A DNA stretch of 32,000 bases from an uncultured Gammaproteobacteria bacterium (GCA_964360965.1 CAYHYM010000004.1:32796-64795); one strand, 5' to 3'. Positions 505-31,841 are shown, counted from the stretch's first letter. The notes: generated from the sequence alone by a model not told the origin. A program made the numbers and translations.

Positions 505-528
505 TTCTTTTCGACGCAATTTTGTCGC

Positions 529-1159: not shown

Positions 1160-1179
1160 GCCTTAATGATACCATAAAT

Positions 1180-1200
1180 GTACTGACAAGGTACTGACAA
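1180..1200. promoter_or_regulatory. tandem direct repeat GTACTGACAA x2 (11-nt period) in the divergent promoter region; candidate antitoxin operator
   Basis: GTACTGACAA at 1180-1189 and 1191-1200. On the minus strand these read TTGTCAGTAC x2 and overlap a TTGTCA-18 nt-TATGGT promoter-like arrangement upstream of the antitoxin start at 1159. Confidence 0.35.
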
Positions 1201-1226
1201 ATTAATGTGGGGTATAATATTTCCCA

Positions 1227-2102
1227 GTGATTACTAAATCAAAACAGGAATATATTAAAAATGCTATTTATCTTTCCTATACTTCTTTAAATGATTTTTT
1301 GAAGTGTCCCGGGAGCTATTATTTAAAAAACATCTACAGAGATCCCAAAACCGGCTTTAGGATGCAGATTGCCTCACCTTATCTTTCTTTAGGTTCAACA
1401 GTCCATGATGCTATAAAGTGGCATATAGAAATGGCAGGCCCGCTTCGACTCGCGTCGAGCGAGGCGAGACAGGTAACATATGAACAATTGGAGGGAAAAT
1501 TTAGAAATCTATGGCTAAAATATACCGGTAAAAGAGGGGGTTTCTCCACCAAAGAAGATGAAGCAAGTTTTGGTAAGCGCGGCCTGTTAATGTTGGAGAA
1601 TTTTTTTAGAAATGCCAAAAACTTGGAAGATAAACATCACAGTATAGAATTTCCTAAATACCCATTATTGGATAATGTAATTTTAATGGGGAATTTTGAC
1701 TTTATTGGGGAAAAAGAGGATCAGACCTTACATGTTGTGGATTTTAAAACCGGAGCAAATGATGAAAAAGATCCAATTCAGCTTTATATTTATGCCATTT
1801 TGGCAGAGGCTAATTTGGAAAAATCAGTTTCTTCAGCTTCATTTTGGTATTTGGACAGGGAAGATAAACCGCGTGATATAGTTTTAGATCCGCTGGAACC
1901 AAAACTGGAATGGTTAAAAGAAAAAGCCACAGAGTTAAAAAAGGCAATTGGGGAGGGAATGTGGGTTTGTCCTTCGACTCGCTCCGCTCGCTCAGGATTA
2001 TGTAGAGATTGTAGAGACTATCATGCCATTTTGGATGGAAAAGGTGAATTTCAATTTACTGATTATAGATACAAGAAAGATGTTTATTACCTTCCCAAAT
2101 AG
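1227..2102 (+). CDS. PD-(D/E)XK Cas4/RecB-family nuclease with Fe-S-type cysteines
   Basis: 291 aa with a GTG start. VVDFKTG (D-x-K) and QLYIYA (QxxxY) match PD-(D/E)XK/Cas4-RecB motifs. Cys27 plus a C-terminal C-x10-C-x2-C resemble Cas4/AddB 4Fe-4S ligands. Confidence 0.7.
   Translation: MITKSKQEYIKNAIYLSYTSLNDFLKCPGSYYLKNIYRDPKTGFRMQIASPYLSLGSTVHDAIKWHIEMAGPLRLASSEARQVTYEQLEGKFRNLWLKYTGKRGGFSTKEDEASFGKRGLLMLENFFRNAKNLEDKHHSIEFPKYPLLDNVILMGNFDFIGEKEDQTLHVVDFKTGANDEKDPIQLYIYAILAEANLEKSVSSASFWYLDREDKPRDIVLDPLEPKLEWLKEKATELKKAIGEGMWVCPSTRSARSGLCRDCRDYHAILDGKGEFQFTDYRYKKDVYYLPK
1433..1473 (+). repeat. GC-rich TTCGAC-type mini-element copy inside the nuclease ORF (encodes GPLRLASSEARQ)
   Basis: ggcaggcccgcTTCGACtcgcGTCGAGcgaggcgagacagg is a sharp GC island in an AT-rich gene. 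It contains the hairpin TTCGAC/GTCGAG at 1444-1459. Confidence 0.5.
1971..1996 (+). repeat. GC-rich CCTTCGAC...GCTCAGG mini-element copy inside the nuclease ORF (encodes PSTRSARSG)
   Basis: CCTTCGACtcgctccgctcGCTCAGG shares both ends with the copy at 18491-18518. It lies between the first and second C-terminal cysteines. Confidence 0.55.
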
Positions 2103-2123
2103 TGGCTAGACTTCATGAGTAGT

Positions 2124-2555
2124 TTAACCTGTTTTTTTAGAATCTGGGATTATGACTGAAATAACAGGTTTTTGATCTAACAATTCTACCACAAAAAGCC
2201 CATGCAAAAGAGTGGCTGTTTTAAGCACTTGCTCAAGAGGGACTCCTGTTTCTTTGGCAATTTGTTCAGCAGGTGCGCTCCAATGATGATCTTTTAAAGA
2301 GCGGGTAAAAGCTCCCAAGGGCTGGTTTTTGTAAGCTGCCATTCTGGTAAGAAAAGCCAGAGGTTCTGCCAGTTCACTAAATGGCTTGGGGGCACAAGGT
2401 GTATCAGGTATGGGTACTTTAGTTAGATCAACAGGAACTGTTAATTGCTCAACAAGCATCATTTCTACTGTAGATCTATTTTCCAAGCTTGTCAAAAAAG
2501 CTGTTTGGTTAAGGTGAACTAGCCTCAAAAAACGTGAATTAATACCGCAAAACAC
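2124..2555 (-). CDS. hypothetical protein (start uncertain: GTG 2555 or ATG 2462)
   Basis: 143-codon ORF with no recognised motif. The first ~30 codons overlap a terminator-like hairpin, so the internal ATG-ATG at 2462/2459 is an alternative start. Confidence 0.35.
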   Translation of the reverse strand: MFCGINSRFLRLVHLNQTAFLTSLENRSTVEMMLVEQLTVPVDLTKVPIPDTPCAPKPFSELAEPLAFLTRMAAYKNQPLGAFTRSLKDHHWSAPAEQIAKETGVPLEQVLKTATLLHGLFVVELLDQKPVISVIIPDSKKTG

Positions 2556-2567
2556 CTTAAATTCACG
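2527..2567 (-). terminator. terminator-like hairpin CGTGAATT/AATTCACG followed by T6 (minus strand)
   Basis: Minus strand: cGTGAATT (2567-2560), 19-nt loop, AATTCACg (2540-2533), then TTTTTT (2532-2527). It lies downstream of the serine hydrolase gene. A third copy, AAATTCAC (2593-2586), can pair alternatively with the middle arm. Confidence 0.35.
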
Positions 2568-2592
2568 CTAAATTGACAAAAGTAAGTGAATT

Positions 2593-3426
2593 TCAGCTAA
2601 GTTGATGGACCATGTCTTCTACCATTTCTCTAACTCTTGCTTGCTGAGGATAAGTTGAATCTTTATCTGAGACTGCTTTATCGCTTGTTAAAGCTACAAA
2701 GCTGTGTTCAATATATCTACGGTCTATAGATTGCAGATAACCTGCTTGATGGCAATAACTAAATCCATCTTGGGTAATATTACCATCTTTATGCCTAACA
2801 GTAACCTCTTGACCACTTGCTGTAGCAGTTTTTCTAGTAGGGATCCATCTTAAAAACTTTTGGCCCAGATAATTATCTCTAACTAAAAAGCCTTTCCTAA
2901 ACTCATATAAAAATTGGCCTACATTTTGAGCTGTTGTTTCATTTAGTGTGCCTGATTCAAGATTTAAGATAGTAGTATCATGAAGATGCCAATTGGATAA
3001 AACATCCTGTATTCTATTTCTACCTGCTACATCCGCTACCTTGGCAATTGCTACGTTATCAGAAAATTGAATAGAGTATCTTAGGAGATCTTCTAAAGTC
3101 TTTGTTGGCAGCATGTCCCTTCTAACAGCTTTGGACATAGCCCAGAGAGGAAGAAATTCTACTTTAAGTCTTCCAGTACCATGCATATTTTCCTGATACT
3201 CGTAAGGGGTAATATGATATCTTTGTTGTAAATCAAGCACCTCATCTTCTACTATTTTTAGAGCTACAGCCACTATAAAAAGTTTACCCAAAGAAGCAGC
3301 AGGTTGTTTCTCATGAGAATTGTATTCAGTAACTACTTGGTCAGTTTTTAAATTCTGTTGGAAGAAAGCAGTATGTAACTGACCATAAGTTTGTATACCA
3401 CTTGCTTCTTTAATTGAGCCTGTCAT
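2593..3426 (-). CDS. class A beta-lactamase-like serine hydrolase
   Basis: 277 aa. Contains S-x-x-K (ASLGK), an SDN motif (QFSDNVA), an E-x-x-LN-like omega-loop (LESGTLNE) and a KTG-like KDG. No signal peptide is obvious. Confidence 0.6.
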   Translation of the reverse strand: MTGSIKEASGIQTYGQLHTAFFQQNLKTDQVVTEYNSHEKQPAASLGKLFIVAVALKIVEDEVLDLQQRYHITPYEYQENMHGTGRLKVEFLPLWAMSKAVRRDMLPTKTLEDLLRYSIQFSDNVAIAKVADVAGRNRIQDVLSNWHLHDTTILNLESGTLNETTAQNVGQFLYEFRKGFLVRDNYLGQKFLRWIPTRKTATASGQEVTVRHKDGNITQDGFSYCHQAGYLQSIDRRYIEHSFVALTSDKAVSDKDSTYPQQARVREMVEDMVHQLS

Positions 3427-3438
3427 GGTTGGATTGTA

Positions 3439-3483
3439 TCATAAAAGTTTAACTTCTGCTAAATTGTTATATTTGTGGAAGCC
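3439..3483 (-). pseudogene. displaced thpR/ligT 3'-end remnant (copy A, 15 codons)
   Basis: The minus strand reads GGCTTCCACAAATATAACAATTTAGCAGAAGTTAAACTTTTATGA = GFHKYNNLAEVKLL*. Compare the intact gene end GFHKHNTLAEVKLV* at 9801-9845. It starts 8 nt after the PIN stop. Confidence 0.8.
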
Positions 3484-3491
3484 TACCTGTA

Positions 3492-3932
3492 TTATTCTCC
3501 GGCTAATTTAAAGCCCGGCTTAGGGTACCAATCATCAAAAGAAAATATCAAATTTGTTTCAAACTTATTGGCAGTTGCAGCCACAATTGCGTCAAAAATA
3601 GTATTTTGCTTAGATTGAGACCTTGTTTCAAAAATAATCGCTGCCTTAGTTTGAATTTCTAAGTTTACGTACTCCACAGTAAAAGCTCCTGCCAGATATT
3701 GTTTATTTATTAATTTTGCTTTATCAGGTAGGTTTTTAGCACGAGATAAGGCTGTAATTGTTTCCAGAATAGCAGTATTAGGATAAATTACTTGAAATCT
3801 TTTTAAGTTGAGCCACTGACTGATTCTCTTTGCTTTTTGGTGATTAGCATCTTGCTTATCTGCTAAAGCTATTAAGGAATCCGCATCTCCTATAATAATA
3901 TTGTTCACTTTTGTCTTTTCTCTCCACCCCAA
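3492..3932 (-). CDS. PIN-domain toxin (VapC-like)
   Basis: 146 aa. Acidic PIN signature residues occur in IIGDADSLIAL, AILETI, IFDAIVAA and SFDDWY. It overlaps the upstream RHH gene; an alternative GTG start at 3908 gives a GTGA stop/start overlap. Confidence 0.7.
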   Translation of the reverse strand: MGWREKTKVNNIIIGDADSLIALADKQDANHQKAKRISQWLNLKRFQVIYPNTAILETITALSRAKNLPDKAKLINKQYLAGAFTVEYVNLEIQTKAAIIFETRSQSKQNTIFDAIVAATANKFETNLIFSFDDWYPKPGFKLAGE

Positions 3933-4189
3933 GCGTAGTAGTCGTGATTTATAGATACATCCGTAGGAGAACCTTGTTGGCTGGGCATTTGTTCTGCCAT
4001 CTTAGCCAGATCAAGTAAAGCCTGGGCATTGGATTTAGGGTGATTAATCTCCAAGCCCTTACTCAGGGCCTCTCTTATAATTTCAGCTTCAGCCTTATTC
4101 TTATCTTGAGCTATTAAGCTAATTCTTCTTCTGGTATCATCCGGGATGTGAACACTGATTCTTTGCATATGTATTACATCATACATCAT
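3905..4189 (-). CDS. ribbon-helix-helix (CopG/VapB-like) antitoxin; probable true start ATG 4168
   Basis: MQRISVHIPDDTRRRISLIAQDKNKAEAEIIREAL is a typical RHH N-terminus. TTGACA (4206-4201), a 17-nt spacer and TATGAT (4183-4178) precede the ATG at 4168. Confidence 0.7.
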   Translation of the reverse strand: MMYDVIHMQRISVHIPDDTRRRISLIAQDKNKAEAEIIREALSKGLEINHPKSNAQALLDLAKMAEQMPSQQGSPTDVSINHDYYAWGGEKRQK

Positions 4190-4202
4190 ACAAACAGGTT
4201 TG

Positions 4203-4404
4203 TCAAGTGCCCAACTTAACTTCAGCTAAAGTGTTGTGTTTATGAAATCCATTAGAGGGGATCGACTCAAATAGCTTAATCGACGATATCCGTATTGGAT
4301 TAAAAGGCATGGCCATAAGTTTTTCCATTTCCACTTCTAATTTTTGATCTACTTTTAAATGGTTGTTGAGCTTGGAAATATTGAAATCTTCACTTTTGAT
4401 AAAG
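4203..4404 (-). pseudogene. 5'-truncated thpR/ligT paralogue remnant (copy B, about 65 codons, frame intact)
   Basis: Translates ..FIKSEDFNISKLNNHLKVDQKLEVEMEKLMAMPFNPIRISSIKLFESIPSNGFHKHNTLAEVKLGT*, collinear with the C-terminus of the gene at 9801-10367. Nt 4297-4375 are identical to 9892-9970 (79 nt). Confidence 0.85.
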
Positions 4405-4427
4405 ACTTAAAAAAGTTAAGGTAAAAA

Positions 4428-4512
4428 TTACCAGGCTATTTTAGAGGGGAAAGGTGAGTTTCAGTTTACAGACCACCGCTACAAAAAAGATATTTATTTC
4501 TTGAAACGTTAA
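4428..4512 (+). pseudogene. 3'-end remnant of a Cas4-like nuclease paralogue
   Basis: Translates NYQAILEGKGEFQFTDHRYKKDIYFLKR*. Compare DYHAILDGKGEFQFTDYRYKKDVYYLPK* at the end of the gene at 1227-2102. Differences are mostly synonymous or conservative. Confidence 0.8.
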
Positions 4513-6050
4513 TAAATAGGCTCGAGGTCTTTTTCTACAACTTTTTCTATTAAAGTTTGTCCAGGGAAGATATAAATAAGTCTGATTTTGCCTGAACCGA
4601 CCTTGTTCAGTTCGTCAATAATAGTTGTAACTTTACTTGACTTAATATCAGTAAAAGGTTTGGCGACGGAATGGTATCTGCTGATAAAACCTTCTAGTTC
4701 GGAAGCTGCCAGAATCACCACTACATTTTTATCCAGAAGTGTGGTCATTTCGCCTTTAAGCTTACCTTGTTCTCGTAATAGGTTTTCAATTACTTGATAA
4801 AATTGGTTAAAATCTTGGGTGTTTGATTTACAGTTAATAATAAACTGTTGGACCTTTTCTTGTGTCTCAGAATTTACTGCGATAGACCCCTCTAGGATGT
4901 GACCTTCAAAGGCTGAAGTACTACTGTTGTAGACAGAAGGTAACCCAAGGAGAATAGTATGTGCTACCTCAATTTGGTGTTCCGCAAGCTCTGCTAACAC
5001 GCTTCTTACTGCTTGTTTTGGGTCAATATAGTCAATTCCAGGTTCTTGTTCTAGTAATTTGCCAACGCCTCCGTGCATAGCGGTGGAGCTAAAAGTGATT
5101 ATTGGGGGTATTCTTCTCTCCCTAGGTAGTGCTTTCGCGCGAGCCATTAATTCAGGCATATGAGCTTTTAAACTTTGGCCATATAAATTAGTGTCAATTG
5201 AGCCTGATAGTTTTGGATCAGAGATCGGATAAATCTCAGGAAACGAGCGATCGCCAAAATAGTTCTTCCCCAAGGCTGTAATTAGAGAGTTCATCAGGGC
5301 TTCGGTGAAATGGGCAGTATCACGACCGCTATCTCCACCAACAACAATAATTGGTCTTCTAGCAATCACTCTTGTTTCTTCTGGTTTACTAATATCCGGA
5401 GTAATGGTTTGTATTGGTAGTCTTTGAATACCCTTCAGGTAGCGTCTAATATCAAATCCAACGTAAAATCTAGGGTCTCCTGAAGAAGAAAATACTGTAT
5501 CCTCATAAGGATAATCTGCTCCAGTAATTAGGTCACGATCAAAAAAATGCCTTATGGGAATATCAGTTTGGGTAAATGGGTTAACGGTGCCATACTCAAG
5601 ACCTAGCTTGGTCACATCAGCACGCTTTAGATCAGACTCACTAACATCTAAGTGCTGGGCCAATTTGGTAAAGTCTAGCTCTCGATCAGCTCTGGTATGA
5701 GTTATAACTAGGGGATAACCAGGAGCTGTTAGGGCATTAGATCTCATAATTCGCCATAGTTCTACTCCTTGCTCTCCCTCGAAAATCGCAGCCGCAGCAT
5801 TTTCTCTTACAGATCTGGGACGGCCTTGATTTTTACCAAAAAAATAATGAACTCCGTATTCAAAACGCAAAAGTGGCGGGACTGGAGTTTCTGTATATAT
5901 CTCATCTCTAATCTCTGCCGGGACATCAAAAATGGTCAGGCAAAGTGAATCAAAATGGCTGGCGATTTGAGCCAGTCTTTCCACCACAGGATCGCTTTCT
6001 TCAAGGCCAAGTTGCTTTGGGTTAAATCCAACCTGTAATAATTGTTCCAT
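4509..6050 (-). CDS. two-domain protein: YbaK/ProX-like deacylase domain fused to an Asp/Glu-racemase-like domain lacking the catalytic cysteines
   Basis: 513 aa. The N-terminal half has a YbaK-like pattern (LVITHTRADRELDFTKLAQHL...GLEYGTVNPF...). The C-terminal half has a racemase-like IIVVGGDSGRDTAHF, then FSSTAMH (versus CNTAH) and ILAASELEG (versus GCTEL). All assignments are by eye. Confidence 0.45.
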   Translation of the reverse strand: MEQLLQVGFNPKQLGLEESDPVVERLAQIASHFDSLCLTIFDVPAEIRDEIYTETPVPPLLRFEYGVHYFFGKNQGRPRSVRENAAAAIFEGEQGVELWRIMRSNALTAPGYPLVITHTRADRELDFTKLAQHLDVSESDLKRADVTKLGLEYGTVNPFTQTDIPIRHFFDRDLITGADYPYEDTVFSSSGDPRFYVGFDIRRYLKGIQRLPIQTITPDISKPEETRVIARRPIIVVGGDSGRDTAHFTEALMNSLITALGKNYFGDRSFPEIYPISDPKLSGSIDTNLYGQSLKAHMPELMARAKALPRERRIPPIITFSSTAMHGGVGKLLEQEPGIDYIDPKQAVRSVLAELAEHQIEVAHTILLGLPSVYNSSTSAFEGHILEGSIAVNSETQEKVQQFIINCKSNTQDFNQFYQVIENLLREQGKLKGEMTTLLDKNVVVILAASELEGFISRYHSVAKPFTDIKSSKVTTIIDELNKVGSGKIRLIYIFPGQTLIEKVVEKDLEPIY

Positions 6051-6148
6051 ATATCTATTATCTATGTGATAGAGCAGGTATTATACACTATAAGGCTTAT
6101 TATGTCAAAATGATTAAACTAAGGATTTTTGTGTTTTTAAAACACTTG

Positions 6149-6179
6149 TTGACATATTGTCATACAGATGTGTTATACT
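6149..6179 (+). promoter_or_regulatory. promoter (TTGACA, 19-nt spacer, TGtTATACT extended -10) with embedded palindrome TGACAtatTGTCA
   Basis: TTGACA 6149-6154, TG 6171-6172, TATACT 6174-6179. ATG 6186 lies only 6 nt after the -10 and there is no SD. The inverted repeat at 6150-6162 overlaps the -35. Confidence 0.5.
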
Positions 6180-6185
6180 TAAGTT

Positions 6186-7916
6186 ATGGCATTAAAAAGA
6201 ACTACCCTAAGGATAGATGAAGACTTAAAAAAAGATACTCAACAGCGAGCCTTAGAGGAGAATACCACTCAACAAGAAATTCTCAATAGAGCTTTAAAGA
6301 AATATTTAAGAACTGAGGTTCAGAAAGAGCTTGCTAGGGAAACAGTGGCCGAGCCACAGGAAGTAACTACAAAAAAGGCTAGTTCGAGTAAACCAGCAGA
6401 TGTAATTGATTTGATATTTAGCTCACTGGATATCGAAGCCAGGGGTTTTATTAAAAAGGGAGATTTGATAGATGCCCTTAATTTTAGAGGAATTCTAGAG
6501 GATGACATTAGGATTAAAAATGTCATGGAGGCTTTGAGTAAAACTAATAAAGACGATGATATCCCCCCCCAAACCTTCCGCAGGATTGTTGGGCCGTACA
6601 TTACATTAATTGAAAAAGCCCTGACTGGTAGTCTGGTTATCCCCGATTTTAAGAATTTCTGTAGTTTTATTACTAATCTTTATAATCGCACAATTCAAAA
6701 CAAAGATGGCGAGGTTTCAGATTACATACCTGAGCTAAAAGGAGTTGACCCAAATAACTATGCTATTTCCATTTGTACTATAGACGGACAGAGATTTAAT
6801 TTGGGAGATTACAATACTCCCTATCTAGCCCAATCTACTGCCAAACCCATAAATTATTGTCTGGCCTTAGAAGAGCACGGCGAAGAAGTAGTTCATAAAA
6901 AGATTGGCAGAGAACCTTTAGGCAAAGGTTTAAATCAGTTGACTCTAAACAGTCAAGGATTGCCGCATAATCCTTTAAATGGTACAGGAGCAATTATGTC
7001 GGCCTCCTTGATTGGCCAAGAACTTTCCCTGGAAGACCGTTTTGAACAGGCTTTAAAGAAATGGAAGTCGCTTTCCGGAGGAATTAATCCTGGATTTTCA
7101 AAATCAGCTTACGATTCAGCTAAACATGTTGCGGATAAAGATCTGGCGCTAGCTTATTTTATGAGATTGAATCAGTTGTTTTCCAAAGGATCAAATTTAG
7201 AAGAATATTTGGACTTTCTGTTTAAATGCTTATCTATTGAAACTACCACTGAAGCTCAAGCAATTATTGCTGCCACTTTGGCAAACGCCGGAGTTTGTCC
7301 GACCAATGGGGAAGCCGTGTTAAAAATGGAGACTACAAAGAATTGTTTATCTTTGATGTATTCCTGCGGTATGGAAGATTACTCGTCTGAGTTTGCTTTT
7401 GCAATAGGACTTCCTGCTAAAAGCGGTATTTCAGGATCGATTATGATAGTTGTGCCTAATGTGATGGGAATTGCGATTTATTCTCCTAGGGTTGATAGTA
7501 ATGGCAATAGTGTTAAAGGATTAGATTTATGTAATAAATTAATCCAGAGATTTAATTTTCATAATTACGATAGCTTAACTAAAAAACTGGATAAAATTGA
7601 TCCCAGGCTTTTGAAAAATGAAAATAAAATGAGGGGCGTGATGGCTGTTTGTACTGCTGCTTCTCAGGGAGATCTATATGAGATCCAAAGGTTAGAGGCC
7701 TCGGGGGTTGCTTTGGATGAAGGTGATTATGATGCCAGAACCGGCATACATCTGGCAGCCTCGGAAGGTCACGAAGAGGTAGTTCGCTATTTTATTGAAA
7801 GAAGAGTGGATATTAACCCTAAAGACCGTTGGGGTGGGACACCTTTAGCTGATGCCATGAGAGGTAACCACACTGCGGTAATTGAACTGTTGGAGAAAAA
7901 TGGAGCCAGGCTATGA
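6186..7916 (+). CDS. glsA: kidney-type (GLS-like) glutaminase with N-terminal RHH domain, EF-hand-like region and C-terminal ankyrin repeats
   Basis: 576 aa. The RHH is TLRIDEDLKKDTQQRALEENTTQQEILNRALKKYL. Glutaminase core motifs: YIPELK, CTIDGQR, QSTAKP (Ser-x-x-Lys), GLPAKSGISG, VVPNVMG, GNSVKG, NFHNYD. Three ANK repeats follow (DYDARTGIHLAASEGHEEVV..KDRWGGTPLADA). Confidence 0.85.
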   Translation: MALKRTTLRIDEDLKKDTQQRALEENTTQQEILNRALKKYLRTEVQKELARETVAEPQEVTTKKASSSKPADVIDLIFSSLDIEARGFIKKGDLIDALNFRGILEDDIRIKNVMEALSKTNKDDDIPPQTFRRIVGPYITLIEKALTGSLVIPDFKNFCSFITNLYNRTIQNKDGEVSDYIPELKGVDPNNYAISICTIDGQRFNLGDYNTPYLAQSTAKPINYCLALEEHGEEVVHKKIGREPLGKGLNQLTLNSQGLPHNPLNGTGAIMSASLIGQELSLEDRFEQALKKWKSLSGGINPGFSKSAYDSAKHVADKDLALAYFMRLNQLFSKGSNLEEYLDFLFKCLSIETTTEAQAIIAATLANAGVCPTNGEAVLKMETTKNCLSLMYSCGMEDYSSEFAFAIGLPAKSGISGSIMIVVPNVMGIAIYSPRVDSNGNSVKGLDLCNKLIQRFNFHNYDSLTKKLDKIDPRLLKNENKMRGVMAVCTAASQGDLYEIQRLEASGVALDEGDYDARTGIHLAASEGHEEVVRYFIERRVDINPKDRWGGTPLADAMRGNHTAVIELLEKNGARL

Positions 7917-8218
7917 AAAGTGATATTAAGACAACCGGAGTAATGGCGCTTGACTGGGCAGCGGCTCAGGGAGATTTGCACGAGATTCAAAGGTTAGTCG
8001 CATCCGGCGCAGATTTGAACGAAGGTGATTATGATGGGAGAACCGCAATACATCTGGCAGCCTCGGAAGGACAGGAAGAAATTGTCAGGTATTTAATTGC
8101 GAAAGGTGTAAATATTAATCCTAGGGATCGTTGGGGTGGGACACCTTTAGCTGATGCCATGAGAGGTAACCACACCAAAGTTATAGAGCTTTTGAAAAAA
8201 CATAATGCACAGAAATAA
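7913..8218 (+). CDS. stand-alone ankyrin-repeat protein, tandem duplicate of the glutaminase C-terminus
   Basis: 101 aa, collinear with residues ~480-576 of the preceding gene. Nt 8129-8175 are identical to 7827-7873. ATGA start/stop overlap at 7913-7916. Confidence 0.75.
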   Translation: MKSDIKTTGVMALDWAAAQGDLHEIQRLVASGADLNEGDYDGRTAIHLAASEGQEEIVRYLIAKGVNINPRDRWGGTPLADAMRGNHTKVIELLKKHNAQK

Positions 8219-8229
8219 TCTAATTTCCT

Positions 8230-9330
8230 ATGAATGATAAACAAATTTCTCCTCCCAATAAAATAAAAGTTTATGTATTAAACACAGGTGGAACTCTGGG
8301 AATGGTGGGTAAACCGCTTCGTCCCGCTAAATCAGCTGCAGAGCTTTTAGAGGGAATTAATACTCCGCCTGAAGTGGAACTTATCATAGATGATTTTAAG
8401 TTTAGGCAGGATTCTACTAATATTTTGCATGCTGAAAGGCTAATGATGGCTAGGCAAATAGCCGAAAATTATAAAACCCATGATGCTTTTGTCATTATGC
8501 ACGGGACTGATTCTATGGCAGAAACAGCTGCAGCTTTTTGTATGTTCTTTAAATTATCTTTACAAAAGCCTTTAATTTTAGTTGGTGCTCAGATGTCTAA
8601 AGATGAGCCTGGTTCAGATGTACAACTGCAGTTATCAAATACTTTTAGAGTTGCCAGCGCCTTTCATAGATATAATATTGTGGGTGTTTATAATGTTTGT
8701 ATCGGTGATATTTGGGATGGGTCAAGGCTTAGGAAAAGAGCAGAGTCAAATTTCATGGCTTTTTACACTCCAGGTCGTCATCCGGTGGCCAGAATTTGGC
8801 CTCATATTCACTTTGATGAAGGGTTAAGATATAAAGATCCTGTTTTGGCAGTTCAGGATTTAAAGATTGATGGTGTGCTAGAGCGTAAAGTAGCTACTTT
8901 TAAAGTATCAGCAGATACACCTCCATGGGTAGTAATGGATCAAGTTTTAAAAAATCGCCTCAAAGGGGTCATTTTAGAGTGTAAAGGTGCAGGAAATATT
9001 CCAAATCGTGAATGGGAAGATTATGAAAACGGGACAACTTATTCATGGATTGATGTAATTGCGGCAGCAACTAAAGCTGGAATCCATGTGGGGATTATTT
9101 CACCTTTTGAAGATGGCAGAGTTATCCTAGGTCGTTATGAGCTGGGAGCAGAAGCACTTGAGGCAGGGGCAATTAGCTTAGAAAGTCTGACTCCAGATAT
9201 GGCAGATATTAAGTTTAGACAGGCTATTGCTATGTTTCCTACAGATAGAGAAAAAATTCAAGAATTTATTTCAACTAATATTATTGGAGAATTACTTACC
9301 GGAGCAGAAGATTCTGAGGAATTCATTTAG
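8230..9330 (+). CDS. ansA: L-asparaginase, type I family
   Basis: 366 aa. Contains the VLNTGGTLGM (TGGT) and HGTDSMAETAAA (HGTDTM) asparaginase motifs. Confidence 0.75.
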   Translation: MNDKQISPPNKIKVYVLNTGGTLGMVGKPLRPAKSAAELLEGINTPPEVELIIDDFKFRQDSTNILHAERLMMARQIAENYKTHDAFVIMHGTDSMAETAAAFCMFFKLSLQKPLILVGAQMSKDEPGSDVQLQLSNTFRVASAFHRYNIVGVYNVCIGDIWDGSRLRKRAESNFMAFYTPGRHPVARIWPHIHFDEGLRYKDPVLAVQDLKIDGVLERKVATFKVSADTPPWVVMDQVLKNRLKGVILECKGAGNIPNREWEDYENGTTYSWIDVIAAATKAGIHVGIISPFEDGRVILGRYELGAEALEAGAISLESLTPDMADIKFRQAIAMFPTDREKIQEFISTNIIGELLTGAEDSEEFI

Positions 9331-9340
9331 AGTAAGTTTT

Positions 9341-9385
9341 TTACCCAAGTTTAACTTCAGCCAGAATGTTATGTTTATGGAAGCC
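9341..9385 (-). pseudogene. displaced thpR/ligT 3'-end remnant (copy C, 15 codons)
   Basis: The minus strand reads GGCTTCCATAAACATAACATTCTGGCTGAAGTTAAACTTGGGTAA = GFHKHNILAEVKLG*. It lies 13 nt downstream of the degenerate hicA stop. Confidence 0.8.
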
Positions 9386-9398
9386 ATTTTTGTAGAAA

Positions 9399-9518
9399 TC
9401 AAAGTAATTCTTTAAGTTCATCTATGGAAATTTCCACTGACTTTAAAATACTCATTAGAGTTTTTCTTTTGAGAGCTTTAATGACCTCCTTTGGCTTAAC
9501 AACTGGAATTTTGGGCAT
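9399..9518 (-). pseudogene. hicA: hicA toxin gene with 105-nt in-frame internal deletion (39 codons left)
   Basis: Translates MPKIPVVKPKEVIKALKRKTLMSILKSVEISIDELKELL*. The intact paralogue at 31043-31267 has MPKIPIVKPKEVIKALQRK[35 aa including GSH]...KRKTLMSILKSAEISIDELKKLL. Too short to appear in the ORF track. Confidence 0.85.
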
Positions 9519-9782
9519 TTAAGAAAGAGTTTGCTGGATGGGTATATCAATTGTTGTCATAAAGCTGGGACCTTTTTCTTCAGGAACTATTTCATTATGT
9601 TTTTTTAAACTGGCAATATATACGCTGATAGCATCTTTAACCATCTCCACAGCTTCTTCCAAACTGTTACCTTCTGTGACACATCCTGGCAGAGCAGGTA
9701 CAATCACCACATACCCACCTTCTTCAGCTGGTTCAAAAATAGCAGTATATTTTAAGATTTTTTGAGAGATTTTCTTAGCCAT
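9519..9782 (-). CDS. hicB: HicB-family antitoxin (copy 1)
   Basis: 87 aa. YTAIFEPAEEGGYVVIVPALPGCVTEGNSLEEAVEMVKDAI is the HicB/UPF0150 fold signature. TAA-ATG junction with hicA. Confidence 0.8.
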   Translation of the reverse strand: MAKKISQKILKYTAIFEPAEEGGYVVIVPALPGCVTEGNSLEEAVEMVKDAISVYIASLKKHNEIVPEEKGPSFMTTIDIPIQQTLS

Positions 9783-9800
9783 GGAGTTATTATAGCATTT

Positions 9801-10367
9801 TCAAACTAACTTTACTTCAGCTAAAGTATTATGTTTGTGGAAACCTTCTTGGGGAACTGATTCAAACAGTTTAATGGAGGAAATTTTAATGGGATTAAAA
9901 GGCATGGCCATAAGTTTTTCCATTTCCACTTCTAATTTTTGATCTACTTTTAAATGGTTGTTGAGCTTGGCAATGGTGATATGAGGAATGAAACGACGTT
10001 CATCTGCTGTGAGCCTTAAAGTGGCCAAGCTATCTTTGATGCGCTCACGAATAAGTAAAATTTTATCTATATCCCCTTTGACTCCAATCCAAAGAACTTG
10101 AGGATGGTGGAGGTTTGGAAATCCATCAATATAGGCAGGGGTAACTTCAAATGCAGGAATATTCGCTACAGCATTTCTGATAATTTCAACTAATTTATCC
10201 TTTAATCCATCCGGTTGTTCTCCTAAAAAAGCTAAAGTCAGGTGAATTTTGTCTAAATCAGTAATTCTTACTTGAGTAATTAATGTATGCAATTTAGCTT
10301 GTATAGCTTGAAACTGCAATCTATTCTCTTTCGGAATTTCAAGTGCTATGAAAAACCTTATACCCAT
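9801..10367 (-). CDS. thpR: RNA 2',3'-cyclic phosphodiesterase / 2'-5' RNA ligase (2H phosphoesterase)
   Basis: 188 aa with two H-x-T-x motifs (HLTLAFLG and HITIAKL) at the expected spacing. Confidence 0.8.
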   Translation of the reverse strand: MGIRFFIALEIPKENRLQFQAIQAKLHTLITQVRITDLDKIHLTLAFLGEQPDGLKDKLVEIIRNAVANIPAFEVTPAYIDGFPNLHHPQVLWIGVKGDIDKILLIRERIKDSLATLRLTADERRFIPHITIAKLNNHLKVDQKLEVEMEKLMAMPFNPIKISSIKLFESVPQEGFHKHNTLAEVKLV

Positions 10368-10419
10368 AAATCATACTATATTTGACAACGCTTTTAAAAA
10401 GTGCCTACACTTAAATAGT

Positions 10420-10734
10420 ATGGCAATGGCGGTTGAAGCTCCCCCTCAGCCAAGAGCAAAAGCTGAAATAAGAGTTATTAAATCTGATCCTGAAGTTTTG
10501 GATGAGCAAGTACTCTATCAACAAGGAGCTTATAAAAGAGTCAGGCAATATCTACGAGGCTGGTATCCTAAATTGGGAGTTTTACATATGGGCTGGCAAG
10601 GTCAAGAAACCATTGTAGAAAGAGATGTTATTACAGCCAGTGTAAGATTTAGAGTAAGCCAGGGTATTGATAGGTATACCTTCACTGACTTGACAAATAG
10701 ACCGGGATTTCTTATTGTTAAAGCAACAACTTAA
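10420..10734 (+). CDS. hypothetical protein (tracked ORF 10348-10734; ATG 10420 preferred)
   Basis: The 10348 start would overlap the thpR start. TTGACA 10382-10387, an 18-nt spacer and TACACT 10406-10411 precede ATG 10420. No motif recognised. Confidence 0.4.
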   Translation: MAMAVEAPPQPRAKAEIRVIKSDPEVLDEQVLYQQGAYKRVRQYLRGWYPKLGVLHMGWQGQETIVERDVITASVRFRVSQGIDRYTFTDLTNRPGFLIVKATT

Positions 10735-10736
10735 TA

Positions 10737-10926
10737 TTTAATCAAGAGTGATGGGGAGGGAATTGGCCCGTTGATCCATCCAGCAACTGATTCGAGTTTT
10801 CGAGAATCCTTAAGCGACTAGCGAAGGACCTCTAGAAACCGACCGCGGTGCTACACCCAAGCCCGCAAGGGAGGATTAGGTCTTTTAAAGGCAAAAATTG
10901 AACCTCTCTTGATGAGAGGTTTTTTA
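10737..10926 (+). promoter_or_regulatory. SAM-I (S-box) riboswitch with terminator expression platform
   Basis: UUAAUC-AAGAG-UGAUGGGGAGGGAAUUGGCCCGUUGAUCCAUCCAGCAAC...GGUGCUACACCC-AAGCCCGCAAGGGAGG-GAUUAGG matches the S-box core (AUCAAGAG, GAGGGA, GGCCC, UGA..CC, CAGCAAC, GGUGCUA). P1 pairs 10737-10743 with 10874-10880. P4 has a GCAA tetraloop. A terminator follows. Confidence 0.8.
10901..10926 (+). terminator. intrinsic terminator of the riboswitch expression platform
   Basis: AACCTCTC-ttgat-GAGAGGTT followed by a T run. The 5' arm plus loop (CTCTTGAT, 10907-10914) is complementary to ATCAAGAG (10741-10748), allowing an alternative pairing. Confidence 0.7.
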
Positions 10927-10944
10927 ATGAGAAGGAGGTGAAAT

Positions 10945-11304
10945 ATGGAAAGAAAAGAATTAATGCAGCAGTTAGTAGCTGAAGGAAGAACAAAACCTAG
11001 GGGTTTACTGACTATTATATTTGACGAAGAGAGTGAGTATGTCAGATTTGTGCGTGAGGCATATAATAGGTTTGGTGGTGAAGGATTAGAATTTACTAAC
11101 GTTCCGATTATCCTTAGTGCCCGTGTTAGACCCGGCCTATTGGAGCAAACCTGGGAAGAATTTAACTATAGACCAGTTACTAAAGAGGATTTAGATAAAG
11201 TTAGGGAGGAATTAAAAAAATGGAAGCCATGGGATCCGGCAATACTAAAAGATGGACATGTTCCAGGTTTTGCAGAACCAAAGGAAATATATATTGATTG
11301 GTAA
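10945..11304 (+). CDS. hypothetical 119-aa protein controlled by the SAM-I riboswitch
   Basis: Strong SD (GAAGGAGGTG) 5 nt upstream of the ATG. No recognisable domain. Confidence 0.6.
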   Translation: MERKELMQQLVAEGRTKPRGLLTIIFDEESEYVRFVREAYNRFGGEGLEFTNVPIILSARVRPGLLEQTWEEFNYRPVTKEDLDKVREELKKWKPWDPAILKDGHVPGFAEPKEIYIDW

Positions 11305-11465
11305 ATGCTTTTTAAGTTCCTTCATGCCAAGCAAGACTGAAAAGCCAATATAGGCTGCCTTAAGACGCATTTTTGGCATATCTTATAGTATACCAGGTAG
11401 CTGTTTATAAATCAAATAATGTTTATTTAACAGAAGTTTTTGTGATACTATTATTTTAAGCATTT

Positions 11466-12611
11466 ATGGAAGGAAAAGAGTCTGCCCCTATCAAAGTTAG
11501 GGCTGCTAATACTGTTGCCAGTTTCCTACTTTTTGCTATGTCTGCAACAGGTTGTAACCTAAACTTTCCAGGAAGCTCATCAGAAGATTCTCAGGAGTTA
11601 CTAAATAGATCTACCCCTGTTGATCCGGAATTAGGCAAAAGATATAGGCAAATAATTGAGGAATCTGTAGGACAAGACTGTGAATTACCAGAAGTAGGAT
11701 TTAGGTCAATCAGAAGACCGACAGTATTTCTACCACGCTTTAGAACAGAAGGATATATGATTCCACCTCTTTCTGATGGAGAAACAGCCAATATAATAAT
11801 CCCCACCTTAAGTAAACGTGACCCGATAGTGGCTCAAAGTGCCAAAGAAGCAGGAGTCACCAGAGAAGAATATAAAAAAGCAATGGAAAATGTCACAATA
11901 ATTCATGAAGGTATCCACCTTTGTTCACCTTTTGAAACATCAGATCAAAAACATCCAAATCCGGTAATAGTTGATTATACAAAGCCTGATGTGCAACGGG
12001 ATCGTAGAGGAGTATATAAATTAAATTATCAAGTCCGCAGATTAGAAATTGCACCCTTTTCAGGTTTGGGTTTAATGATTGAGGAAAGTAAAATATACTC
12101 TGATGGGACAGTTGAAATTCATAAGCTATATCAGGAAGAGGGAGATACAGAGGAGCTTATTACCCACTCTATCACTCCTCAAAGAGTATTAAAAAAATAT
12201 GGAGCTGATTCTTTAGAATATAAAGCCTCTCAAGAGTCAGGGTATCCAACAGGAAGGACGGTTCTGACAAATATTTTTGCAACAAAAGAGGTAGGATTTG
12301 ATGATATTATCGGGGCAAAACAGAAAAATGATGCTAAAGCTATCTTTGAGATGGTAAAACAGGGGGTTGAGGAGATAGGCAAAAGAGCCGGGATTGAAAG
12401 AAAAGTTACTGATGAGAACCACTCTAATTTTGTGCTATATAACTTTTTCAGTCAGCTTTCTACTGAAAGAGCAGCTAAAAATGAAATTAACCCGAACCTG
12501 CTTATTGATTATTTAAGTAACTATTTCTTTGGTAAAAACTTTAATAAAACAACTGCTAAAGAGAGAGAACAGATGATATCTGTTTACAATCAAGTTTTCA
12601 TCAAACGATAA
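11466..12611 (+). CDS. putative lipoprotein with HExxH zinc-metallopeptidase motif
   Basis: 381 aa. The N-terminal signal ends in a lipobox-like SATGC. IIHEGIHL contains HExxH. Confidence 0.5.
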   Translation: MEGKESAPIKVRAANTVASFLLFAMSATGCNLNFPGSSSEDSQELLNRSTPVDPELGKRYRQIIEESVGQDCELPEVGFRSIRRPTVFLPRFRTEGYMIPPLSDGETANIIIPTLSKRDPIVAQSAKEAGVTREEYKKAMENVTIIHEGIHLCSPFETSDQKHPNPVIVDYTKPDVQRDRRGVYKLNYQVRRLEIAPFSGLGLMIEESKIYSDGTVEIHKLYQEEGDTEELITHSITPQRVLKKYGADSLEYKASQESGYPTGRTVLTNIFATKEVGFDDIIGAKQKNDAKAIFEMVKQGVEEIGKRAGIERKVTDENHSNFVLYNFFSQLSTERAAKNEINPNLLIDYLSNYFFGKNFNKTTAKEREQMISVYNQVFIKR

Positions 12612-12625
12612 GTTAACAGAAGTGA

Positions 12626-14323
12626 TTACTGTGTTCCCACCAGATACACAGCTTGCCAGGGTTTGTAGTTAGATTTCCAGGTTTCTTTGATCATCACCTC
12701 CCCTCCTTTGGTGACAGTTCTGGTAAATGACACATCAGCCCCCCAGGCTGCAAAATCTATCTGTTTGACCTCACCTTTGGGCAGCTCGGGGTCATCCTGT
12801 CGCAACTCCGGTGGAGGCGGAGTCTGGTTGGTAATAATTGGTTTTGTTAAAGTGGCCACCCTGTTATCAGAGGTGCCATATAAATCAACATATAAACTGT
12901 TACCCACTGTATATGCTTGGATTAAAATATGGGATGGGGTGTCATTTTTAAACTTAAAATCAACAGAGGGAGAAAAAACTGTGGCATCCAGTCCGGCAGG
13001 GAAACCCTGCTCATAATAACCCACTCTGTAGGCATGAGCTACTCTTTGGACCACTGGTAGTCCCGCATTTAAGACTGCTCTAAATAAAGTAGTTGAATCC
13101 TGACAAACTCCTCCTCCATCATCTAAAACAGTCCTGCCGGATTTAATCACATAGGCCTGTTTATAACCTGACTGCGCCGAAATATCCCCAACTTTGTCGT
13201 TAAAAGAGAATGTTTCTCCTGGGGGGACTAAAATACCGTTGATGCGTGAGGCAGCCAGTCCAATATTATAGATTCTGTTGGGGATTGAACCTGTAAAATG
13301 AGAAATACCGCGACCAATTAGCTCTTTGATCCCCAAATCATTGACCTGTTGGGTTTGGATTTTAGGCTGGGTAATGGTAACTGGCAAGGTGATGGTTTTT
13401 GGTCTTTGGTTGTCCAAAGCCAGTATGATAAGTTGAGTTGTTTTTTCCATATCAACTCTTTTACCTGCCTGGGCAGGTTTGAAAGCTGTTACCCGTGCTA
13501 TTAATGGATCAAAATTAAACAGCGCCTCAATCACCGGTTGGTCAATTTTGGAAGCTACTGCAGTTGTTAAATATTTGGATAGCTTATTTTTATCTATTAA
13601 CTGATTATTTTGTGTAAAATTCAAAAGAGGGATTAAAATTTTAGCATCAATCAACCAGCTATTGCCATCAAAGGTAAGTTTGATTGGTTCTTTGATAGCA
13701 TCCTCCAGATATTTTTTGGCCAGTTCTGCCTCTTTATTGGTAATGTCTGGTTCAATTTGCCTGGTGGGAAGTGTGGCAGGCGAGTTCCCAAATAAAAGGT
13801 AATCCTCAAGGTAAATTAACAGTTGGTCTTTATCCAAAGCAAGACCTGTTCTGCCTGCTGTTATTTTAATTAGGGCAGATGGGGTTGACTGCTCTATTGT
13901 AAGAGTGGCATCTTGGGGAGGTTGATATATGGTTTGAGCTAAGGCGTTAACTTGTTCGTTAAGATCAATATCAATTTTGGGTTTAATGGTTCTTGGGGAA
14001 ACTGTCAGTTTTATTTGATCGAATATTTTTTCTGCCCAGGTACCTGTATGGCCGATTAAAAAAGCCTCGTCTATGGCCTGAGAACTATTAATTTTGGCAG
14101 AGGCGGTTGACAGGTCAATGGTAAGGATCCTTTGCCGCAGTCTTTGGTGGAATTTTGCCTCAATCAGTCTTTGAGATTGAGTTTTGGTCAGGAAAAAAAG
14201 ATGACTATCCCCGACAAAAATTCCGGGAAAAAATTTATCGTAAAAAATAAACTGACAGCTGGTGAGAATAAGTATGATCAGGATAAAAAATAACACCAGC
14301 GGTCTTTTTGCCATTGAGCGCAT
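12626..14323 (-). CDS. VanW-family protein with C-terminal G5-like domain
   Basis: 565 aa with an N-terminal TM helix. The VanW core is GGGVCQDSTTLFRAVLNAGLPVVQRVAHAYRVGYYE. A G5-like segment (PELPKGEVKQIDFAAWGADVSFTRTV) follows. Confidence 0.75.
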   Translation of the reverse strand: MRSMAKRPLVLFFILIILILTSCQFIFYDKFFPGIFVGDSHLFFLTKTQSQRLIEAKFHQRLRQRILTIDLSTASAKINSSQAIDEAFLIGHTGTWAEKIFDQIKLTVSPRTIKPKIDIDLNEQVNALAQTIYQPPQDATLTIEQSTPSALIKITAGRTGLALDKDQLLIYLEDYLLFGNSPATLPTRQIEPDITNKEAELAKKYLEDAIKEPIKLTFDGNSWLIDAKILIPLLNFTQNNQLIDKNKLSKYLTTAVASKIDQPVIEALFNFDPLIARVTAFKPAQAGKRVDMEKTTQLIILALDNQRPKTITLPVTITQPKIQTQQVNDLGIKELIGRGISHFTGSIPNRIYNIGLAASRINGILVPPGETFSFNDKVGDISAQSGYKQAYVIKSGRTVLDDGGGVCQDSTTLFRAVLNAGLPVVQRVAHAYRVGYYEQGFPAGLDATVFSPSVDFKFKNDTPSHILIQAYTVGNSLYVDLYGTSDNRVATLTKPIITNQTPPPPELRQDDPELPKGEVKQIDFAAWGADVSFTRTVTKGGEVMIKETWKSNYKPWQAVYLVGTQ

Positions 14324-14379
14324 TTTACGTTAGTTCCAAGCTTTGGGCAAGTTATGAGATATAATTGAAAGGTAGACCT

Positions 14380-31837: not shown

Positions 31838-31841
31838 TATT

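Follow-up and report, generated by a model that had tools for sequence, protein, structure and literature searches.

Stacked copies of a displaced thpR gene end separate toxin–antitoxin and cargo units at a gene-acquisition hotspot

The window analyzed here is a stretch of 32,000 nucleotides (nt) from an uncultured Gammaproteobacteria bacterium (GCA_964360965.1 CAYHYM010000004.1:32796-64795), and it contains an array in which repeated ends of the thpR gene bound toxin–antitoxin (TA) and cargo units. The thpR/ligT gene (9801-10367, minus strand) retains its full-length open reading frame (ORF) and encodes a 2H phosphoesterase of 188 amino acids (aa) that matches the Pfam families LigT_PEase and 2_5_RNA_ligase2. 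Among 947 ThpR homologues, those with a named source belong to Candidatus Daviesbacteria or Microgenomates, and the names on the close homologues suggest that the lineage is Candidatus Daviesbacteria of the candidate phyla radiation (CPR). The last 45 nt of the gene (9801-9845) constitute the functional tail, which encodes GFHKHNTLAEVKLV and a stop codon. Three further copies lie on the same strand: Tail C (9341-9385), a fossil thpR end that encodes GFHKHNILAEVKLG and a stop codon; copy B (4203-4397), a 5'-truncated mosaic thpR fragment with the tail peptide GFHKHNTLAEVKLGT and a stop codon; and Tail A (3439-3483), a fossil thpR end that encodes GFHKYNNLAEVKLL and a stop codon. A degenerate 38-nt pattern of the thpR tail has exactly four matches in the window (3446-3483, 4213-4250, 9348-9385 and 9808-9845), all on the minus strand in one orientation, and none of 100 shuffles contains any match. 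A repeat search of the window recovers the same four-copy family independently of the pattern and aligns copy B with the intact gene (4213-4387 versus 9808-9982) at 83% identity, including an exact block of 79 nt (4297-4375 = 9892-9970). The pattern, the repeat search and the translations thus agree with the initial annotation of this DNA, which had described the four copies, their peptides and the identical block, and had proposed that the copies separate discrete TA and cargo units while a functional thpR end is regenerated each time. The four tails indeed bound three units. At the nucleotide level the tails have diverged considerably; the longest run that is invariant across all four is 5 nt (GAAGT), which lies within conserved codons and hence carries little information, and the longest identical stretch shared by neighboring short tails is 8-11 nt.

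Two of the three units are, or contain, small TA operons. The unit next to the intact gene begins with a hicB antitoxin gene (9519-9782, minus strand, Pfam HicB_lk_antitox), which starts 18 nt past the thpR stop codon and is preceded by the extended -10 box TGCTATAAT; related cassettes carry a conserved TGNTATAAT box at the equivalent position. The accompanying hicA gene (9399-9518, minus strand) lacks 35 internal codons, with the frame preserved, when compared with the intact 74-aa HicA encoded at 31043-31267, and is presumably inactive. The 13 nt that follow hicA (TTTCTACAAAAAT) were considered as a relic of an SbcC-like gene tail brought along from the second hicBA cassette of the window, or of a 66/70-aa ORF, both described below, but the alignment is ambiguous and neither assignment was adopted. 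The unit between copy B and Tail A consists of an RHH antitoxin gene (3905-4189, or 3905-4168 as called in the independent contig L173; minus strand, Pfam RHH_1) and a PIN toxin gene (3492-3932, or 3492-3908 as called in L173; minus strand, Pfam PIN). Judged by the Pfam families HicB_lk_antitox, RHH_1 and PIN, the domain pairs appear to be type II TA modules of the HicAB and RHH-PIN (VapBC-like) kinds. The spacers are short, with at most 18 nt on the left and at most 13 nt on the right of the hicB cassette, and approximately 13 nt and 8 nt around the RHH-PIN pair. By inspection, a perfect TTGACA (-35) box encloses the stop codon of copy B (region 4195-4215), and a TATGAT box follows at a distance of 17 nt in front of the RHH gene. 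The stop codon of Tail A (region 3430-3445) forms the TG of the extended -10 box TGATACAAT just upstream of a beta-lactamase-fold gene. Thus, the fossil ends seem to double as promoters.

The remaining interval carries amidohydrolase genes on the strand opposite to the thpR copies (6186-9330): a glutaminase-ankyrin gene (6186-7916), an ankyrin ORF (7913-8218) and an asparaginase gene (8230-9330), all identified by Pfam on the plus strand. The ankyrin-repeat C-terminus of the glutaminase (7612-7901) is duplicated at 7914-8203 (290 nt, 76% identity), where it forms the separate 101-aa ankyrin ORF directly downstream. A 513-aa ORF (4509-6050, minus strand) from the ORF list is found in three independent contigs; its sole Pfam match is a weak one to tRNA_edit, below threshold, and it is probably part of an imported segment. 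Convergent with this ORF is a second kind of fossil (4432-4512, plus strand), recognized by alignment to the intact end and its orthologues, that holds the last 26 codons and the stop codon of a foreign PD-(D/E)XK nuclease gene (QAILEGKGEFQFTDHRYKKDIYFLKR). It is 69% identical to the end of the intact PD-(D/E)XK gene of the window, with a proportion of synonymous differences (pS) of 0.85 and a ratio of nonsynonymous to synonymous differences (pN/pS) of 0.22 (p = 4e-4). The stop region of this fossil overlaps the stop codon of the 513-aa ORF. The initial annotation had treated 4405-9340 as a single 5-kb cassette; the amidohydrolase cargo stands, but the block is not bounded by two thpR tails, as it ends in the PD-(D/E)XK fossil. 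The intact PD-(D/E)XK gene (1227-2102, plus strand, Pfam PDDEXK_1) is the convergent partner of thpR and marks the far border of the array. Between it and Tail A lie a 143-aa ORF without a Pfam family (2124-2555, minus strand) and the beta-lactamase-fold gene (2593-3426, minus strand, Pfam Beta-lactamase2); these genes (2124-3426) are older resident cargo of the interval. A Pfam scan finds no integrase, resolvase or transposase domain among the window ORFs of at least 90 aa, in line with the earlier reading that the window lacks an integrase or transposase.

Where do the displaced tails come from? The comparison of the intact tail with Tail A and Tail C gives pN/pS values of 0.17 and 0.09, respectively, and that of intact thpR with the divergent 84 nt of copy B gives 0.11 (pS 0.96). 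Across the compared copies pS is 0.8-1.0, which is near saturation, and the synonymous excess, pooled with three further cases, has p = 2.6e-18. The differences are overwhelmingly synonymous, as the clustering at third codon positions noted in the initial annotation had implied. Moreover, each fossil is nearer to the working tail of another Daviesbacteria genome than to the window's own: Tail A is closest to the functional tail of the relative L086 (90%) and Tail C is 86% identical to the tail of L170, whereas these two and the resident tail are only 71-74% identical. The fossils are therefore once-functional gene ends from diverged lineages that were later displaced, recently enough that only one or two conserved residues have been lost; this foreign functional origin holds for every fossil and agrees with the first reading of each copy as a displaced, formerly functional gene end.

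Copy B differs in structure from the short tails. It measures approximately 175-195 nt and is fused to the foreign PD-(D/E)XK fossil. In a three-way alignment with the relative L184, its first 79 nt are identical to the resident thpR, its next ~50 nt show two differences from the L184 allele, and its last 40 nt differ from both. The region of the 79-nt block is otherwise 43-86% identical between genomes, and the alignment with L184 reveals that thpR 3' regions are short-tract mosaics. The 79-nt block and this mosaicism are consistent with homologous recombination in the flanking gene. The joint between copy B and the PD-(D/E)XK fossil, where microhomology is patchy, fits homology-facilitated illegitimate recombination (HFIR) or insertion-duplication together with the identical-then-diverged pattern, although gene conversion could mimic the block. 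On this sequence evidence, the structure of copy B appears to be the mark of general and illegitimate recombination and not of a 45-nt attachment (att) site. In the simplest reading, a foreign segment of ~5.4 kb would have entered via a homologous crossover near 9891 and a non-homologous join near 4400-4415. The 79-nt block would then be identical because the stretch between the join and the crossover is resident in both copies, and the remainder of copy B would be diverged because, beyond the crossover, the donor is compared with the resident. Copy B would look the same if the crossover had fallen in a perfectly identical patch, or if gene conversion had acted later. Tail C and the asparaginase gene constitute a single inherited block that is 84% identical to L184 6144-7356, where a related asparaginase gene has the same position and orientation. 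The homology between the window and L184 begins exactly at Tail C, and the cargo upstream of it differs, being hicB and the dead hicA in the window versus a 23S_rRNA_IVP-family gene in L184. Tail C was thus already in the donor of the ~5.4-kb segment. In L184, the spacer between the IVP-family gene and the thpR fossil (6100-6145) contains four loose TTTCTAC-like copies that resemble the fossil start GATTTCCAC.

The junction between thpR and the PD-(D/E)XK gene is a gene-acquisition hotspot, as observed in relatives that share the synteny of the two genes (L083, L086, L167, L169, L170, L176, L178, L180 and L183). In L005, L010 and L011 the ends of thpR and the PD-(D/E)XK gene are adjacent, and where the interval is empty, as in other species-level relatives, the two convergent genes overlap by 8 nt (L170-172) or 18 nt (L178/179). 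Since the genes overlap in this empty state, both can survive an insertion only if it brings in a gene end or duplicates one. Elsewhere the interval holds an RHH-PIN_3 pair (L086 and L180), hicBA with a 70-aa ORF (L083), MazE-PIN with other genes (L169 and L182/183), an asparaginase-like gene (L167), two ORFs of no known identity (L176), or an IVP-family gene followed by an asparaginase gene (L184). At least eight different states of the interval therefore exist, including the empty one. The search of relatives that the initial annotation had suggested thus reveals both empty thpR loci and other occupied sites, with fossils in several of them. The cargo in L086, L180, L167 and L176 is not accompanied by any thpR fossil, and in L083 and L169 the TA cassettes between thpR and an older unit have no fossil that belongs to them. 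The cargo proteins that were compared between genomes are not homologous: the window asparaginase gives no match to the asparaginase-like protein of L169, and the window PIN protein gives none to the PIN_3 protein of L086.

The short fossils begin at the G-F-H codons, within 3 nt, in at least four contexts that represent five genomes (Tail A, Tail C/L184, L169/L083 and L182), which extends beyond the window the earlier observation that the short copies start at the same point. The possibility that fossils reach upstream of G-F-H into the IKLFES codons, with microhomology to the toxin end, had been suggested by eye and was rejected after a right-anchored alignment against 15 alleles with shuffled controls (z -0.5 to 1.1). 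A profile search of genome contigs with the ThpR alignment returned 10 useful loci among mostly distant phyla and no extra tails. In L083 (11053-11265) and L169 (5659-5859), a conserved 66/70-aa ORF (MNW[CS]FAILN...) directly precedes the thpR fossil, and the TA cassettes that lie between this ORF and thpR differ between the two genomes.

A second instance of the same architecture occupies the end of the window (30985-31894, minus strand), where it was identified from the repeat family, the sequence and the ORFs. The functional tail of a gene that runs off the window (31842-31894, minus strand, ending in VSKNATGSTFEVIGT and a stop codon) is followed by a 90-aa ORF (31565-31837, plus strand), hicB (31268-31528, minus strand), the intact 74-aa hicA (31043-31267, minus strand) and a fossil tail (30985-31046, minus strand, VSKNSVGSTFEVIGV and a stop codon), whose 62 nt are 77% identical to 31833-31894. 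The flank test for this cassette gives z = 23.6, and the hicB cassette at the thpR site is 84% identical to the second one (31283-31547). The C-terminus of the off-window gene looks SbcC/Rad50-like by motif only; Pfam is silent on the 52 available residues, as it is on the 66/70-aa and 90-aa ORFs. The 11-mer GTTTCCAMAAA occurs exactly only twice in the 32 kb (9834-9844 and 31879-31889), both times at the 5' edge of a functional tail that is followed by a related hicBA cassette. A rough post-hoc estimate for this coincidence is p ~0.002, and it may reflect a target preference or chance.

Similar footprints are general among hicBA cassettes. We surveyed 80 metagenome contigs encoding HicB relatives by matching the 150 nt downstream of hicA to the 3 kb upstream of hicB at a flank-repeat score threshold of at least 22; the check for assembly errors covered the window alone. 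In the unfiltered survey, 21 of 66 testable loci reached the threshold versus 3 of 350 random positions on the same contigs. This control, with its background of 0.9%, overstated the enrichment, and a gene-boundary control gives 8.3%. False positives were removed, namely L152/L154 (a dispersed 37-nt repeat in eight copies) and L143 and L140 (paralogous N-termini). In a stricter, non-redundant comparison, 18 of 60 hicBA cassettes (~30%) score at least 22 compared with 13 of 156 other genes on the same contigs (odds ratio 4.7, p = 1.4e-4), and 7 of the 13 control hits represent one dispersed repeat and one paralogue family. The L152 repeat, TGTCTCACAAATCTACGCTTTGCGACGCGGGGGCAAA, is intergenic, and its eight copies lie on one strand (e.g., 3364-3400 and 6569-6605).

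The duplicated targets are mutually unrelated and comprise gene tails, promoters and gene heads, with repeats of 29 to ~120 nt at 77-100% identity. Gene ends are represented by those of a sensor histidine kinase gene (L097, 95 nt), of a ClpB-like AAA+ gene on the opposite strand (L119/L144, 60 nt) and of GroEL (L139, a perfect repeat of 29 nt). Also duplicated are a promoter (L127), a segment that is intergenic or promoter-like (L126, a perfect repeat of 76 nt) and a gene head (L111, 57/58 nt identical). Because related cassettes are flanked by many unrelated duplicated targets, the survey argues against one dedicated att site. In L097, four copies of the kinase tail separate a DUF2283 ORF, hicBA and a CYTH and radical-SAM pair; L119, L144 and L117 have arrays of three copies each. 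As in the window, L097, L119 and L144 contain one tail per cassette. Kinase-tail copies 1, 3 and 4 of L097 have a common 5' edge and identical first 38-43 nt. Composite repeats consist of an identical block on the gene-body side and diverge toward the stop codon, with 43 identical nt followed by 9 differences in 52 nt in L097 and 32 identical nt in L119. This polarity of mismatches is only suggestive (z = 1.9, -2.3 and -1.9 at three loci) and mismatches are uniform at others. The homology between closely related cassettes in different contexts reaches as far as the hicA stop codon on one side; on the other it breaks off ~20-45 nt before hicB, just past the extended -10 box. No recombinase was found among 10 ORFs scanned beside the arrays in L097, L119, L144 and L139.

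Several further observations concern individual loci and the flanks of the array. L126 (2960-3130) and L156 (226-396) are 100% identical over at least 170 nt upstream of hicB, repeat copy included, whereas they diverge within hicBA and have nothing in common downstream, which reflects either a recombination breakpoint inside the TA cassette or a chimeric short contig. In L088 and L095, hicBA lies 3-9 nt upstream of a gene starting MPELPEVE, presumably fpg/mutM, and in L093 (~757-790) hicA is followed by a 7-codon copy of this gene head with a stop codon, which may be a gene-head fossil. In the window, the PD-(D/E)XK gene contains at 1975-2001 an extra CCTTCGACTCGCTCCGCTCGCTCAGGA relative to its orthologues. 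This segment resembles the element CCCTTCGAC...GCTCAGGGCAAGC that flanks hicBA in four contigs (L126 at 3017-3092 and 3607-3682, L147, L133 and L114), and the two may belong to a dispersed repeat family. Both flanks of the PD-(D/E)XK gene are TA-rich across relatives (L086, L169, L170 and L180). A MazE-Fic/Doc pair lies upstream of the gene in the window (639-1159), and an orphan HicB-like ORF (15803-16111) follows a solute-binding protein gene at a place where L083 has a full hicBA pair; the flank test detects no flanking repeats at either location.

By what process could such an array arise? We tentatively favor general, homology-anchored insertion-duplication as the way in which the hotspot worked, with TA addiction preserving the inserts. 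For this scheme we infer three steps, namely the recombination route, entry via natural transformation and stabilization by the TA modules. Foreign DNA from diverged relatives would enter the cell and become anchored on thpR homology. It could then be incorporated via one homologous crossover and one non-homologous join, or a re-circularized fragment carrying a 3' piece of thpR could integrate through a single crossover. Either route would produce the same order of gene, incoming tail, cargo and displaced resident tail, and would use the general recombination machinery of the cell rather than a dedicated enzyme encoded by an element. Repetition at this locus would have stacked the three fossils. 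Tail A would have been displaced as a B-type thpR allele arrived with the RHH-PIN pair, and copy B by the arrival of the ~5.4-kb segment (roughly 4415-9891). Besides the thpR end seen today, this segment would have brought in hicB-hicA, the older fossil C, the amidohydrolase genes, the 513-aa ORF and part of the PD-(D/E)XK end of the donor. Direct repeats would normally cause the loss of the intervening DNA, and TA modules would penalize such a loss. Because deletion is penalized, TA-bearing inserts would persist and become over-represented, with other cargo riding alongside. The kinds of target seen would be explained since only duplications that hold a gene end, a promoter or intergenic DNA spare the neighboring genes. 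The joint between copy B and the PD-(D/E)XK fossil and the 79-nt block are as predicted by a crossover with an upstream non-homologous join, or by a crossover in perfect identity. The scheme is further favored by the foreign functional origin of the fossils, the variable content of the hotspot, the short-tract mosaicism of thpR 3' regions, the composite repeats of L097 and L119, the enrichment of flanking repeats around hicBA cassettes, and the lack of a recombinase gene in the window.

Individual steps of this scheme have experimental precedents. In Escherichia coli with one-sided homology, 56 of 60 integrants carried a duplication of the homologous locus, which arose from a re-circularized molecule and a single crossover and measured 109-950 bp in 14 sequenced clones (PMC3240628). 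HFIR is documented in naturally competent bacteria, transformation works up to ~23% divergence (PMC6382021), and natural competence has been demonstrated in CPR Saccharibacteria (PMC10633639). The stabilization of arrays by TA modules has been discussed, and TA modules are linked to mobile elements (PMC7167474).

Several observations weigh against general insertion-duplication. In at least four contexts the first codon of the short fossils is the same, and no significant homology extends upstream of it. Such shared starts are not expected from random non-homologous joins and thus require one founder duplication with later exchange or deletion between fossils. The 8-11 identical nt at most that neighboring short tails share are too few today for efficient RecA-type exchange. 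The cassettes also abut the repeats more precisely than is usual for illegitimate recombination, given spacers of no more than 18 nt on the left and 13 nt on the right, and both intact tails of the window begin with GTTTCCAMAAA. In addition, the first arrival of a cassette at a new target is left unexplained.

These same features could point to site-specific accretion, in which the thpR tail acts as attB and each cassette brings a matching attP together with a replacement tail. The recombinase, of the tyrosine or serine type, would be supplied in trans from elsewhere in the genome or from a helper, and the units would be cis-mobilizable and satellite-like. This explanation is less likely than general insertion-duplication, although it accounts for the same-codon starts in five genomes and for the common edge and identical 38-43 nt of the L097 copies, which resemble an att identity segment. 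The host stop codon marks the end of the repeats, no room is left between them and the cassettes, there is one tail per cassette in the window, L097, L119 and L144, relatives retain an empty site, and both intact window tails start with the same 11-mer; a similar array architecture is known for tycheposons at tRNA genes. Nevertheless, neither the 32-kb window nor the 10 ORFs beside the arrays in L097, L119, L144 and L139 encode a recombinase, and an att reaction cannot have produced copy B and the PD-(D/E)XK fossil. Fossil-free cargo in L086, L180, L167 and L176, fossil-less TA cassettes in L083 and L169, and closely related hicBA cassettes beside many unrelated repeats of variable length are equally difficult to reconcile with a fixed site, for which the four tails offer an invariant run of only 5 nt.

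A related but rather less probable proposal is a dedicated, previously undescribed CPR route by which minimal cassettes, each no more than a TA operon and its -10 box, are inserted where housekeeping genes end (3'). In that case every insertion would renew the gene end while its predecessor stayed in place, and the catalyst would be a recombinase of the host or a helper that prefers a short target. The targets in view are thpR, the SbcC-like gene, the histidine kinase gene, the ClpB-like gene and GroEL. This route is kept in play by the same-codon fossil starts in at least four contexts and by the shared GTTTCCAMAAA.

The units may instead be decayed full-size integrative elements, that is, islands that once carried their own integrase in the thpR 3' end and were streamlined to TA modules and useful cargo; this history is doubtful. 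When mobile elements degrade, a TA module is commonly what survives longest, the window hicA is itself decaying, and tycheposon islands contain att fossils with fragmented integrases. The weaker point, a linkage between TA modules and mobile elements, is the one supported by PMC7167474. No integrase fragment or other pseudogene remnant is visible in the window, however, and the tiny spacers would require repeated exact trimming to the cassette while useless tails were spared. Moreover, the boundaries of related cassettes, at the hicA stop codon and ~20-45 nt before hicB, recur where the surroundings are unrelated.

A local or target-site duplication that decayed in place is highly improbable for the window and is ruled out there by the substitution pattern, since decay in place would lose frame and residues, whereas the thpR copies keep their amino acids at near-saturated synonymous sites and are nearer to functional tails of other genomes than to the resident tail. 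Perfect or near-perfect repeats flank hicBA elsewhere (L126, 76 nt; L139, 29 nt; L111, 57/58 nt), and to the perfect ones such a duplication may still apply. Repeat lengths of 29 to ~120 nt are unlike a transposase footprint, a target-site duplication of fixed length and initial identity is not what these lengths and the synonymously saturated thpR copies represent, and all 9 differences in L097 are confined to the 3' 52 nt.

Equally remote is an assembly artefact in which strains were chimerically joined across the repeats, because every tail junction is internal to contigs that were assembled independently. The source is a low-coverage groundwater metagenome (Hainich well H51, 0.1-um filter; coverage ~4x), and the independent evidence comes from single-sample contigs of two replicate filters. 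Window 1-8212 is reproduced by L173 (99.99%), 3446-8161 by L174 (100%), 8204-11263 by L002 and 8787-14657 by L001; all four contigs are 99.8-100% identical to the window, and each tail junction is found in two independent assemblies. The misassembly check called for in the initial annotation, performed here with these contigs, leaves only the 9-nt link 8204-8212, between the ankyrin and asparaginase genes, to the window contig alone. A chimera would draw on the low coverage, on this 9-nt overlap of the single-sample contigs and on a Logan unitig that ends at the edge of the 79-nt repeat. The short tails are nonetheless too diverged to confuse an assembler, and the two halves correspond to the VanW...thpR and PD-(D/E)XK...TsaD sides of the locus, which relatives hold in synteny.

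Unlike a plain hotspot, the locus preserves its displaced gene ends in layers, and these fossils record past recombination partners across lineages with saturated synonymous sites. It also shows how compact CPR genomes with tail-to-tail gene overlap take up DNA while the neighboring genes stay unbroken. TA insertion leaves a countable footprint, namely a diverged duplication of the neighboring gene end or promoter, sometimes in stacked arrays, and this footprint bears on the unanswered question of how TA modules enter genomes (PMC7167474). If the dedicated CPR insertion route were true, it would be the first structural signature of TA module movement.

How does the array compare with known systems of gene acquisition? 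Small TA-type units between short sites, without a recombinase of their own, resemble the pdif modules of Acinetobacter plasmids and Xer-dependent integrative elements (IMEX). Those modules are small, often TA-bearing and recombinase-less, and lie between 28-bp dif-like sites with two inverted 11-bp arms, whereas the thpR tail is ordinary coding sequence without inverted-repeat character. Inspection and folding of the tails reveal no inverted-arm or dif-like structure, a result that concerns architecture only because the dif sequence of the lineage is not known, and the tails fold no better than shuffled sequence (z -0.78 to +0.68). Integrons likewise stack small cassettes, including TA modules that protect the array (PMC7167474), but no intI occurs among the window ORFs, attC hairpins are absent, and the repeats here are host gene ends. 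Since the tails lack hairpin and inverted-arm character, integron attC and dif-like sites are excluded.

The accretion of islands at att sites of tRNA and tmRNA genes, tycheposons, cis-mobilizable elements (CIME) and staphylococcal cassette chromosomes (SCC) offers a closer likeness in outcome, as the incoming unit regenerates the 3' end and displaces the older copy outward. Protein-gene 3' ends serve as targets of tandem accretion for SCCmec (rlmH) and ICESt1/CIME (fda). Tycheposon arrays show tandem accretion at tRNA genes, with partial target copies and recombinase-less units (preprint). A protein-gene 3' end as target and recombinase-less tandem units, which the initial annotation had set apart from islands at tRNA genes, are thus both already known elsewhere. 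Its comparison with island-like accretion at a gene 3' end holds for the regeneration of the tail but not for uniform att-flanked cassettes, as copy B is mosaic and fused. Target-derived direct repeats do bound the units here and the target is intact, as in integrative elements; those systems, however, have an identified recombinase and a fixed att site, while no recombinase is encoded in the window or was found among the 10 array-adjacent ORFs, copy B is not an att product, and the units are as small as a single 0.5-kb TA operon.

Minimal mobile elements, defined in Neisseria by Saunders and Snyder as cited in PMC3787668, share with this locus a fixed pair of conserved genes, cargo that varies between close relatives, the lack of mobility genes and a mosaic flanking gene. 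Their exchange is ascribed to homologous recombination after DNA uptake, and the interval between thpR and the PD-(D/E)XK gene has just this variable content between conserved genes without mobility genes. As classically described, a minimal mobile element is a clean, scarless double-crossover replacement; here, in contrast, stacked and synonymously diverged gene-end fossils and one non-homologous junction are left behind. Insertion-duplication and HFIR need a single region of homology and generate direct duplications of variable length around the insert, which fits the repeats of 29 to ~120 nt and the identity-then-divergence blocks, but they are laboratory phenomena of very low frequency. 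To our knowledge, neither has been described as a recurrent natural builder of arrays at housekeeping gene ends or has been tied to TA cassettes. What is new relative to all of these systems is the granularity of a single TA operon, the use of housekeeping gene ends, promoters and heads as targets, the statistical tie to one TA family and the CPR setting.

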